Part shown: piece by piece, positions 2,052 to 33,567 of the stretch | Layout of the letters: each line of letters begins with the position of its first letter | Numbering within the stretch: position 1 is the stretch's first letter | Assembly: GCA_905236715.1 (NCBI GenBank) | Contig: CAJOMQ010000009.1 | Location: 1,562-65,561, forward strand | Source of the DNA: an uncultured Bacilli bacterium | Lineage (GTDB): Bacteria; Bacillota_I; Bacilli_A; RFN20; CAG-826 | DNA: 64,000 bases | Direction of reading: 5' to 3' | Notes under the pieces: generated by a model | Told to the model about the DNA's origin: nothing | Database searches by the model: none | Seen by the model: only the letters and a program-made list of their open reading frames with translations | Program-made: the position numbers and the translations under genes

Positions 2052-2279
2052 TTGTCTCTCCTTAAAATAACTAGAAATATATTACCACACCTAACCCTAG
2101 AAAACTGACGACTAAATGAAAAATTATTTAAGCAAATTTCTTGTTTTTTTATTTTTTTAAAATTTTTTTGTCAAATTTGGCATTTTCATCCCTATATGTT
2201 TAATGAGGGGCAAATTATGTCCCTCAGAATAGGAGACATATTTTTATGTTAGGGTTTATCCCTGCAGAAAGGAGGAAAA

Positions 2280-2339
2280 ATGCAGTACCTTTTGGTGCTC
2301 GTTATTATATTGTTAGTTATCTGCTTACTAGTTAAGTAG
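2280..2339 (+). CDS. 19-aa hydrophobic peptide MQYLLVLVIILLVICLLVK, putative type I toxin
   Basis: AAAGGAGG SD. The same peptide is encoded at 33193-33252 with four synonymous and no non-synonymous changes. Confidence 0.8.
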   Translation: MQYLLVLVIILLVICLLVK

Positions 2340-2343
2340 ATAT

Positions 2344-2376
2344 AAAAAGGGCTTGTGAGCTGTGTCACAAGCACCT
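2344..2376 (-). terminator. Hairpin GCTTGTGA-N6-TCACAAGC with a minus-strand U-tract (possible terminator of an antisense RNA)
   Basis: 8-bp perfect stem followed by TTTTT on the minus strand; conserved at 33257-33290. Confidence 0.55.
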
Positions 2377-2389
2377 AAAAGACAATATA

Positions 2390-2417
2390 ATTATAACACA
2401 GCTATTTCTCTTCGCAA
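2390..2417 (-). promoter_or_regulatory. Antisense sigma-70/SigA promoter TTGCGA-16-TATAAT with extended -10 TG
   Basis: Reads TTGCGA agagaaatagctgtgt TATAAT on the minus strand; same architecture in the other two module copies. Confidence 0.65.
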
Positions 2418-2472
2418 GGGGCCGGGAGGCCTAATTAACAGCCTAATTAAAATTGCTCAAAGGCGATAGATG

Positions 2473-2512
2473 AAAAAAGGAGTGCTTTACGAACTGTGCC
2501 GCAAACGCCTCC
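2473..2512 (-). terminator. Rho-independent terminator after the fructokinase gene
   Basis: Minus strand GGAGGCGTTTGCG...CGTAAAGCACTCC followed by TTTTTT, just past the stop at 2527. Confidence 0.65.
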
Positions 2513-2526
2513 AAGCAACAATAATA

Positions 2527-3465
2527 TTATAGCAACACTAAATTATCATTTTTTAAGAAGGTGTCAATTTCTTCTTCTCTAGGAGCCGAATTAATGGCAC
2601 CTTTCTTTAAAGTGGTTAAACCACCGACAACATTAGCCCTTTTTAAATAGTATTTAATTTTTTCTTCCTTATTTATAAAATCGGGCTTATTAACTAAACA
2701 CGAAAGGAAATAGGCGTAGAAAGCATCACCCGCACCCGTTGTGTCAATGGGTTTCATAGGATAAGAATCCACTTTTAATAAATTCCCATGATGATAGAAG
2801 ATAGAACCTTCTTTTCCTAACGTCACCACAGCGATTTGTTGGTCATTTAATAATTCATTTAAGGCTGTGCTAATATCTTTTCGTGGAGAAAACATTTCTA
2901 ATTCTTCAAGAGAAAATTTCAATATATCCGCCTTTTTAATCGCGGATAAAAAGACTTTTTTAGCCTCTTCTTTTGAAGAAAAGATATCATCGCGATAATT
3001 GATGTCAAAAGATATTTTTGCTTTGCTATGGTCTCTAATTTGACTGATTGCGTCATCAAAGAATTTTCGTCCTATCTCTTCCGATAACATTAATGAACCA
3101 ATGTGAACGATGTCATCATCACGCAAATTAGCAAAATTAATGTCATTGATATTTATGGCGTAATCCGCACCACTAGCTCTTTCAAAGCGGAATGATCTCT
3201 CACCATTATTTAAACTAACAATGGCTTTGGAGGTGTACCGGTTAGGTAATACATCAATTTGGCAATATTTAAATGGTTTATTATTCGCGGTTTCTTGCAA
3301 TAAGCGACCATATTCATCATTACCAACTGCGCCGATAAAGGCAACATCTTTGGTATATAGAAGGGCATTGCAAGCCACATTAAAAGGGGCACCACCTGGT
3401 AAAACGGTTTTATTTTTACCATCATCAAATATATCCACTAAAATTTCGCCAATACAGATGAGCAT
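2527..3465 (-). CDS. PfkB-family carbohydrate kinase, likely fructokinase
   Basis: GEILVD, PGGAPFNVA, FDINYR and DTTGAGDAF motifs; last gene of the fructan locus. Confidence 0.9.
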   Translation of the reverse strand: MLICIGEILVDIFDDGKNKTVLPGGAPFNVACNALLYTKDVAFIGAVGNDEYGRLLQETANNKPFKYCQIDVLPNRYTSKAIVSLNNGERSFRFERASGADYAININDINFANLRDDDIVHIGSLMLSEEIGRKFFDDAISQIRDHSKAKISFDINYRDDIFSSKEEAKKVFLSAIKKADILKFSLEELEMFSPRKDISTALNELLNDQQIAVVTLGKEGSIFYHHGNLLKVDSYPMKPIDTTGAGDAFYAYFLSCLVNKPDFINKEEKIKYYLKRANVVGGLTTLKKGAINSAPREEEIDTFLKNDNLVLL

Positions 3466-33054: not shown

Positions 33055-33365
33055 TATTTTTAAAATTTTTTGTCAAATTTGGCATTTTCATCCCTATATG
33101 TTTAATGAGGGGCAAATTATGTCCCTCAGAATAGGAGACATATTTTTATGTTAGGGTTTATCCCCCTGGCTCCTTGCAGAAAGGAGAAAAATATGCAGTA
33201 CCTTTTGGTCCTGGTTATTATATTGCTAGTTATTTGCTTACTAGTTAAGTAGATATAAAAAGGGGCTTGTGAACTGTGTCACAAGCACCTCAAACGCAAT
33301 ATAATTATAACACAGCCATTTTTCTTAGCAAGGGGCCGGGAGGCCTTATTCAAGCTTATTAAATA
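33055..33365 (+). repeat. ~300-bp dispersed module, copy 2 (type I TA-like)
   Basis: Near-identical to 2150-2455; antisense promoter TTGCTA-16-TATAAT at 33304-33331; hairpin at 33257-33290. Confidence 0.9.
33193..33252 (+). CDS. 19-aa hydrophobic peptide MQYLLVLVIILLVICLLVK, putative type I toxin
   Basis: AAAGGAG SD; identical protein to 2280-2339. Confidence 0.8.
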   Translation: MQYLLVLVIILLVICLLVK

Positions 33366-33374
33366 AGTTATCCT

Positions 33375-33567
33375 CTCCATATGTTTTAATGAAGGGGCAT
33401 GTTTGTCCCTCAGAATAGGAGACATATTTTTTATGTTCTGGCATTGCCGCTCCTGGCCTCTTGCTGGTGAAGTATATGGATTACCTATTGGTGATCCTAA
33501 TGTTATTGTTGACAATATTATAGCACAGTAATTAATCCAATCAAGAGGCCTAAAGGCCTTATTCAAG
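33375..33567 (+). repeat. Diverged, internally deleted tandem copy 3 of the module
   Basis: Keeps TGTCCCTCAGAATAGGAGACATATTTTT, a peptide ORF, the antisense promoter (TTGATT-16-TATAAT, 33517-33544) and AGGCCTTATTCAAG. Confidence 0.8.
33476..33523 (+). CDS. 15-aa hydrophobic peptide MDYLLVILMLLLTIL, paralogue of the 19-aa peptide
   Basis: GGTGA SD; M-x-YLLV start shared with the other two copies. Confidence 0.6.
   Translation: MDYLLVILMLLLTIL

Follow-up and report, generated by a model that had tools for sequence, protein, structure and literature searches.

A predicted type I toxin-antitoxin-like peptide module behind a competence-type promoter box in an uncultured Bacilli genome

A short intergenic unit, found twice in a 64,000-nucleotide stretch of contig CAJOMQ010000009.1 (assembly GCA_905236715.1) from an uncultured Bacilli bacterium, appears to encode a small hydrophobic peptide together with a convergent antisense RNA, and on balance we lean, with modest confidence, towards reading it as a new type I toxin-antitoxin-like family placed under a competence-type alternative-sigma promoter. 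That stretch, at its full length, is the window referred to below; positions given without a contig prefix belong to it, and the prefixes C1, C2, C3, C8 and C12 denote contigs of the window's own genome, G000 (1.29 Mb in 25 contigs, 35% G+C, 94% complete). The two units, copy A at 2150-2455 and copy B at 33055-33365, lie where the original prediction, made from the letters of the window, had put them (BLAST and sequence inspection). The type I-like reading advanced there is supported in silico by coding constraint on the peptide, by the presence of many copies, by the lack of a family match and by a predicted antisense gene in 8 intact units. The antisense gene goes beyond that prediction, as do a sense promoter shared with competence genes, a truncated third unit after copy B and an orphan piece after copy A.

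What is known of type I toxin-antitoxin modules comes mostly from Proteobacteria and from a small number of cultured Bacillota, and the physiological triggers of such modules are clear in few cases, the SOS response for tisB being one. The module family described here comes from an uncultured gut lineage with reduced genomes and has no Rfam, Pfam or NCBIfam match; its promoter box would mark out a competence or recombination regulon and point to a candidate sigma factor, in bacteria whose competence is unstudied. If the peptides are toxic, the modules would make a link between competence and toxin-mediated growth arrest or lysis open to direct test, and could also be used as orthogonal sense/antisense parts of compact size. 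The tie to competence, which if real would be unexpected, is drawn from sequence analysis, as is the whole of this account.

The unit and its copies in the genome

When copy A was searched by BLAST against the whole of G000, copy B was returned at 90% identity over query positions 2-302. The 93 identical bp claimed earlier for this pair are contained in the longest identical run that the two share, which measures 99 bp (2164-2262 versus 33066-33164). There are six near-full copies in the genome at 88-100% identity (the two in the window, three on C3 and one on C2), and two further copies, on C3 and C8, are intact but diverged. The full census comes to 8 intact units, 2 short degenerate units and 2 orphan 3' pieces at 7 loci; such repetition is far above chance, and multicopy or tandem, patchy loci of this kind (8 intact plus 4 decayed units) are a feature of the type I class. 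By eye, the flanks of the units are ordinary housekeeping-looking open reading frames (ORFs), often convergent, with no obvious mobile-element genes among them, and genome-wide BLAST together with this inspection agrees with the earlier description of a multicopy, intergenic module. No gene is found consistently downstream of the units across the G000 loci; since the neighbours are also unrelated housekeeping genes and in many cases convergent, a leader-peptide or attenuator reading was rejected.

In both window copies the ORF is preceded by a GGAG(G) Shine-Dalgarno (SD) sequence, which the unit alignment places in copy A at 2271-2275 (GGAGG, plus strand, 4 nt ahead of the start codon). The ORF of copy A (2280-2339, plus strand; 19 codons and a stop) and that of copy B (33193-33252, plus strand) translate, as had been claimed, into one and the same 19-residue hydrophobic peptide with the look of a single helix. 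They differ at codons 6, 7, 12 and 14 only, exactly those listed in the original prediction, and every one of the four changes is synonymous. Across the six close copies, 9 of the 57 ORF positions vary, split 2/1/6 over codon positions 1/2/3, and the minimum number of events is 10 synonymous to 2 non-synonymous (Val/Ala and Val/Ile, both conservative). With an expected synonymous fraction of 0.241 the binomial probability of a 10:2 excess is P = 2.6e-5, which upholds the purifying selection proposed for the peptide; the pairwise ratio of non-synonymous to synonymous change (dN/dS) is ~0.12, the pairs among copies not being independent.

The diverged copies extend this comparison. Their peptides have 22 (C3) and 19 (C8) residues and start with Met-Asp-Tyr, not Met-Gln-Tyr; in them and in a metagenome contig, L098 (21 residues), a hydrophobic ORF of 19-22 codons is kept despite many base changes, and over the copies in G000 and L098 the N-terminal part of the peptide is conserved and the C-terminus variable. 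A strong SD at the correct distance was found in 8 of 8 intact units. The synonymous excess and the 2/1/6 periodicity indicate that the ORF is coding, and the retention of the SD and of a hydrophobic ORF of the same size in the diverged copies and in L098 makes a fortuitous ORF very unlikely; judged by this comparison, the ORF is coding and under purifying selection. The ORF is whole in the 8 intact units, and in degenerate ones it is truncated (33476-33523) or, on C3, disrupted. Degenerate copies are usual in arrays of such type. An upstream ORF within the leader was also considered and rejected, as a 13-nt indel disrupts its frame.

A convergent antisense RNA gene

When copies A and B were scanned for promoters and terminators, each gave one call of either kind on the minus strand, the promoter at 10 of 12 and with a TG. 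In copy A the promoter reads TTGCGA-16 nt-TATAAT with TG before the -10 (2417->2390, minus strand, 10 of 12), and the predicted antisense RNA, ~42 nt in length (2383->2342, minus strand), ends at a terminator hairpin (2372->2351) and its T-run; in copy B the corresponding elements are TTGCTA-16 nt-TATAAT with TG (33331->33304, minus strand), an RNA of ~43 nt (33297->33255, minus strand) and a terminator at 33286->33265. The T-run of the antisense terminator abuts the stop codon of the ORF in both copies. The hairpin that follows the ORF has no U-run in the sense direction, so that the terminator is one in the antisense direction only.

Over all units the predicted antisense RNA measures 42-49 nt. 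All 8 intact units, and L098 too, have the TGnTATAAT element and the A-run with its hairpin, the sequence between the two having diverged, and the terminator stem covaries: in an alignment of nine hairpins, 6 of 8 stem pairs are altered on both sides, and 91.7% of the cells are paired, a level reached by 0 of 500 shuffles, with slid controls at 23-46%. A convergent small-RNA gene is therefore predicted in all 8 intact units, each having its antisense promoter and terminator, and the antisense RNA gene that a type I system requires is in this sense present in silico.

No named family accounts for the unit. Rfam gave 0 matches at gathering thresholds over the whole window and chance-level matches only at E <= 5 for both loci; no toxin family was matched at E <= 10 by 7 peptides of 20-25 aa in Pfam or by 5 in NCBIfam, scans with a 20-aa minimum that the 19-aa forms do not reach, and the claim that the element fits no named family holds for these three collections. 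One candidate, fstAT (RF01797; 2301-2398, minus strand), fell at the place and on the strand of the antisense RNA, with 18.2 bits against a gathering threshold of 72 (E = 1.3); it was seen in copy A only, and since copy B gave no such match at E <= 5 it was treated as noise.

The sense promoter box and its regulon

The sense promoter box spans 2166-2201 in copy A (plus strand), with a -35-like hexamer at 2168-2173, a 19-nt spacer and a TAT-block at 2193-2198, and 33068-33103 in copy B (plus strand; hexamer 33070-33075, TAT-block 33095-33100). The first ~55 nt of the unit recur alone at other sites of G000. A profile and pattern search located 18 boxes in this genome, the pattern matching 17 times versus 0 for a reversed control, and all 18 have the same spacing, TTG[GT][TC][AG]-N19-TAT. 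Eight of them front peptide units; the other 10 stand before other genes.

Among these are recA (Pfam 2.9e-137), dprA (Pfam 1.2e-65), comEA (SLBB, HHH_3) with a ComEC-like gene, a ComFA-like helicase with a ComFC-like phosphoribosyltransferase, and an operon with a ComGA-like T2SSE ATPase whose first gene (L047:1-303 = C12:36416-36718) belongs to the MG284/MPN403 family (NF045770, 39.7 bits). A box likewise precedes a 61-residue single-pass membrane protein (L045:1-186 = C1:129463-129648) followed by radC, a C39 peptidase-domain protein, two MacB-like ABC genes (ABC exporters), and a thioredoxin-like gene with pcrA; a full box stands before a 257-residue protein of unknown family (L053:1-774 = C2:37528-38301), for which a sub-threshold methyltransferase match was the only one. 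By annotation, the gene set is one of classical late-competence and recombination genes. The box has a poor housekeeping -10, and the sense promoter is accordingly predicted to be of a competence type rather than a housekeeping type.

The search for a factor that could read this box gave few candidates. Only two genes in G000 match sigma-70 region 2, rpoD and a divergent sigma of 203 aa (L196:1402-2010); the latter scores 19.3 bits for region 2 and 24.4 bits for TIGR02937, both below cut-off, and its Atlas neighbours are sigma region 2/region 4 clusters. By eye, its gene comes directly after an ORF for a SpoU/TrmH-like methyltransferase, a neighbourhood which we take to be that of sigH in Bacillota. 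ComK and Rgg were not found in G000, a 94%-complete genome. From the poor housekeeping -10, the single alternative sigma and the lack of ComK and Rgg, we infer that the 203-aa sigma is the box reader; a DNA-binding activator or repressor may read it instead.

Related genomes add some observations on individual regulon members. The arrangement of the 61-residue membrane protein upstream of radC is kept in two of them, G107 and G078 (L229, L232), and the protein has no family match. An MG284-like gene is also found behind a box in G193 (L219), a genome of another genus. As the MG284/MPN403 family is known from Mycoplasma, this is a hint of a relationship between the box regulon and that of Mycoplasma sigma-20. 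In the congeners G128 and G146 (L149, L150), a box-like sequence (TAT-block and GAGG) lies ~70-130 nt upstream of an rpsF-like gene, which suggests that ssb may belong to the box regulon there.

Leader structure and 5'-3' pairing

RNAfold places a 5'-terminal stem-loop of the predicted mRNA at 2205-2225 in copy A (plus strand), followed by a second hairpin at 2236-2249, and the corresponding stem-loop of copy B at 33107-33127 (plus strand); both hairpins were recovered in all six close copies, so that the structured 5' leader of the original prediction is seen throughout this group. In full-length folds, a 16-nt segment just upstream of the SD pairs with the 3' tail of the mRNA. In copy B this is the segment of the 5' untranslated region (UTR) at 33162-33177 (plus strand), beside the SD, and its partner at 33328-33345 (plus strand), with a duplex energy of -38.5 kcal/mol (z -5.7). 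Duplexes between the 5' UTR and the 3' tail of -36 to -47 kcal/mol (z -4.8 to -6.6) were obtained for 7 of 9 units, and the changes between subfamilies are wobble-compatible, not fully compensatory. The pairing is weak in L098 (z -2.5), and the 3' tail of copy A (2414-2431, plus strand), whose counterparts pair with the 5' UTR in other copies, has lost its partner by deletion (fold and duplex calculations). A perfect 14-nt inverted repeat between the 5' and 3' parts, unrelated in sequence to that of G000, was found in 4 of 4 modules of G107. By analogy with hok mRNA, a fold-back of this kind could serve to keep the mRNA inactive.

Degenerate units and orphan pieces

A profile search with the 3' part of the unit detected the two orphan 3' pieces, at window positions 2470-2534 and at C3:282-376. 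The former (plus strand; tail profile E 3.2e-7) retains the end of the ORF, the A-run, the hairpin and the antisense -10 with TG of a diverged unit; it comes directly after copy A and abuts the stop of a convergent sugar-kinase-like gene, for which its hairpin could act as a terminator. The two short degenerate units, one at 33368-33545 (plus strand) and one on C3, have suffered an internal deletion that removed the 3' end of the ORF and the hairpin. The window example directly follows copy B and consists of a leader and a 15-codon ORF (33476-33523) with no terminator hairpin; the same short form also comes after another full copy, on C3, and its position behind a full copy at both places indicates block duplication of the pair of full and short unit. 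In the window, the short unit retains an antisense promoter (33544->33517, minus strand) without the terminator, and a read-through RNA from it would be complementary to the leader of this unit and, given the near-identity of that leader to those of the full copies, to the conserved leader throughout the family of copies. That such an RNA works as a trans-acting antitoxin is speculation on our part.

Distribution beyond the source genome

At the nucleotide level the unit is rarely met elsewhere. BLAST found it in none of 200 other genomes of the family, 4 of which have short promoter-like bits only, and a unit pattern had matches in 0 of 400 family genomes; among species representatives there were 19 single chance matches in unrelated taxa and no homologue. 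In a metagenome collection the leader pattern had 0 matches; the peptide, back-translated into a pattern, had 65, and L098 is the single genuine one among them. L098 and the C8 unit are in synteny, both lying upstream of rpsF-ssb-like genes. In these searches the G000 unit sequence is thus species-restricted, apart from L098. Nine congeners lack the unit at the rpsF locus, where the terminator of the upstream gene directly adjoins the rpsF promoter region; from this absence the unit is taken to be an insertion.

The design of the module recurs where its sequence does not. In G193 a species-specific box, with a spacer of 20 nt in three boxes counted by hand, precedes recA (Pfam 7.4e-137) and C39, thioredoxin-like and MG284-like genes, and also at least 8 modules with leaders of ~130-170 nt, a strong SD and hydrophobic ORFs of 20-25 codons that end in a charged tail; an antisense-oriented terminator lies over the stop codon in both of the modules scanned. 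The unit pattern of G193 was found in 0 of 22 other species of its genus. G107, a congener of G000, has a third version of the box before a dprA-like gene, the genes of the radC operon and 4 modules of 22-23 codons; on the antisense strand TATAAT can be seen by eye in 2 of the 4, and the one module scanned has a promoter-like site. Upstream of recA in 5 further genera no box was recognisable by eye. As far as comparison of these loci can tell, then, the module design recurs with species-specific sequences in two other genomes of the family and in L098, and in three genomes from two genera the box of the DNA-uptake and recA genes also stands before peptide modules.

Discussion

We propose that the sense gene would give rise to an mRNA of ~235-250 nt that begins with the terminal stem-loop and continues into the strong SD and an ORF of 19-22 codons, whose product would form one hydrophobic helix and end in a short charged stretch. 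From the opposite direction, a near-consensus housekeeping-type promoter 3' of the ORF would drive an RNA of ~42-49 nt that ends directly after the stop codon and is fully complementary to the start of the mRNA 3' UTR. The sense box would probably be read by the only alternative sigma factor of G000. As long as it is not, any mRNA from leaky transcription would be silenced or destabilised by the constitutive antisense RNA and the 5'-3' fold-back; once the competence regulon is switched on, the toxin mRNA would outrun the antisense RNA, and the peptide would enter the membrane, so that the cell would be slowed or arrested, or a subset of cells lysed, during the DNA-uptake state. In this scheme we infer transcription, RNA pairing in the living cell, the toxicity of the peptide and which factor acts as the regulator.

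Several observations weigh against the scheme. A search of sequencing runs for the locus listed no RNA run, and a single DNA run that may be the source of the stretch. The antisense RNA shows no extra complementarity to the SD or the 5' part of the mRNA in 9 of 9 units (duplexes compared with shuffles, z -0.7 to +0.8); it would thus have to act through its perfect overlap with the start of the 3' UTR, and any block of translation would have to be indirect. At ~42-49 nt it is also shorter than typical type I antitoxins, for which 60-200 nt is given (PMC8594479), and at 19 residues the peptide is as short as the smallest known Gram-positive toxins or shorter. The fold-back is inconsistent across copies and genomes: copy A has 13 nt deleted (2262/2263) relative to the other copies, which removed the 5' partner (z -2.5), and the pairing is absent from 8 of 8 modules in G193 (z -2.2 to +1.0). 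With this SD-adjacent partner gone, copy A may be deregulated or decaying. Outside G000 the antisense gene is harder to trace, with no canonical -35/-10 called in the two G193 modules scanned and no terminator in the one G107 module scanned, and none of the matches listed for G078 was seen to be a peptide module. The start of sense transcription, and with it the choice of box bases that would form the -10, is itself a prediction.

In the explanation that competes best, the peptide would be a membrane micro-protein that is not toxic and has an accessory role in the competence regulon. It might modulate a membrane complex or assist a sigma factor, as a protein akin to the small RrlA/RrlB of the Mycoplasma sigma-20 regulon, with its dose tuned by the cis-antisense RNA; we hold this to be unlikely, if well worth keeping in view. 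In its favour are the box common to DNA-uptake and recombination genes, and the 61-residue membrane protein behind a box upstream of radC, kept in G107 and G078. There is a precedent as well, in that two small sigma-20-regulated proteins of M. genitalium form a feed-forward loop needed for sigma-20 activity, according to the portions of PMC6105099 that bear on them. Accessory factors, however, are normally single-copy and conserved in sequence, whereas G000 has 8 intact copies and decayed ones besides; sequence turnover is fast (0 of 400 family genomes, 0 of 22 congeners of G193), and the unit is absent from the rpsF locus in 9 congeners. Multicopy, patchy and decaying loci, each intact one with a dedicated antisense gene, are instead the signature of a type I module.

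Since the ORFs are short and hydrophobic, and the box also precedes a C39 peptidase-domain protein and two ABC exporters, the peptides might alternatively be precursors of exported signalling or bacteriocin-like peptides (SHP/ComS-like), secreted by these co-regulated proteins and feeding back on competence. This we consider improbable: no Rgg-type receptor was found in the 94%-complete genome, no double-glycine leader was seen when the peptides were inspected by eye, and an antisense gene with each of eight copies is unexpected for a pheromone gene. SHP/XIP-type pheromones, moreover, show the reverse of the pattern met here, in which the N-terminal part is conserved and the C-terminus varies. 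Least probable of all is a non-coding repeat (a promoter/terminator cassette or small-RNA element) with a fortuitous ORF, which would suit the promoter-only copies, the orphan 3' pieces and an ORF too short for any gene caller's list, but would leave unexplained the three-base periodicity with its 10:2 synonymous excess, the correctly spaced strong SD in 8 of 8 intact units, and the same-size hydrophobic ORFs behind unrelated leaders in G193 and G107.

Returning to the toxin-antitoxin-like reading, a wider proposal can be attached to it, tentatively and with less than even confidence. Across this uncultured family of small-genome gut Bacillota, fast-evolving type I toxins might form the largest gene class of the competence (alternative-sigma) regulon, so that entry into DNA uptake would be tied to a self-inflicted membrane insult, by which cells would stop growing, persist or, in a DNA-supplying subpopulation, lyse; the system would then be a Gram-positive counterpart, driven by competence, of the SOS-driven TisB, and would be related by evolution to the Mycoplasma sigma-20 programme.

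Comparison with known systems

The layout is closest to that of the Gram-positive families Fst/RNAII, SprA1/SprA1as, TxpA/RatA, BsrE-G-H and YonT, in which, as excerpts of PMC8594479 describe them, the antitoxin gene is convergent and lies 3' of a small hydrophobic ORF. These families also share with the present one their multicopy, intergenic and patchy loci, and in Fst/RNAII and SprA1/SprA1as, as in G000, the antisense RNA leaves the ORF uncovered. There is no match in sequence or model, and both the peptide (19-25 aa) and the antisense RNA (~42-49 nt) are shorter here. RNAII and SprA1as have a second complementarity to the 5' region, which the G000 antisense RNA lacks; the terminator that works in the antisense direction only, and a sense promoter in a competence-type regulon, set the module apart further.

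The analogy to Ibs/Sib drawn in the original prediction stands as regards the 18-19-residue hydrophobic peptide and the repeated intergenic loci, and breaks down on layout. The antisense RNA of Ibs/Sib spans the whole ORF, according to the part of PMC8594479 that treats it, whereas that of G000 sits after the stop codon; Ibs/Sib is also enterobacterial, and its models give no match. By the features compared, the module is neither Fst/RNAII nor Ibs/Sib.

For the fold-back, the obvious parallel is hok/sok. Franch and co-workers are said to have described, in 1997, an inhibition of this type through 5'-3' pairing of the full-length hok mRNA. As there, an SD-adjacent segment pairs with the 3' end of the mRNA, in 7 of 9 G000-type units and in 4 of 4 G107 modules; the sequences are unrelated, the pairing is absent from copy A and from G193, and the activation of hok by 3' processing has no known equivalent here.

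On the promoter side, the box resembles those of Mycoplasma sigma-20, for which the available text of PMC4446450 gives TTGTCA-N18/19-ATTWAT in M. genitalium and TTGGCR-N18/19-ATTYAT in M. pneumoniae. Both combine a hexamer with an unusually long spacer, and both stand before recA, ComEC-type and peptide-exporter genes, the sigma-20 (MG428) regulon including, in the sections of the two papers that list it, recA, ruvAB, a ComEC-like gene, a peptide exporter and MG_285/286 (PMC4446450, PMC6105099). The first gene of the comGA operon in G000 is of the MG284/MPN403 family, and MG284 neighbours the sigma-20-regulated MG_285/286 (as far as parts of PMC6105099 go). The -10 block, in contrast, is TATnTn in G000 and not ATTWAT, and the box does not equal the consensus published in the relevant part of PMC4446450. 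These ties between the box regulon and the sigma-20 system are suggestive. A single promoter box common to late-competence and recombination genes is likewise what the SigH/ComX type of Bacillota has. In the literature we found no small hydrophobic toxin-like genes in sigma-20, SigH or ComX regulons and nothing that places a type I toxin within a competence regulon, with the reserve that supplementary tables might list some.

The nearest parallel in regulation comes from another phylum. TisB/IstR-1, DinQ/AgrB and SymE/SymR of E. coli are type I systems in which the toxin has an SOS promoter and the antitoxin RNA is constitutive. The present module differs from TisB/IstR-1 in being of the competence/sigma type and not under LexA, in pairing with the 3' UTR and not the 5' UTR, and in having no sequence relation to it. 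What the two have in common is a toxin promoter that belongs to a DNA-related regulon including recA and an antitoxin promoter of the housekeeping type, a combination by which the toxin would appear only upon strong induction of the regulon.

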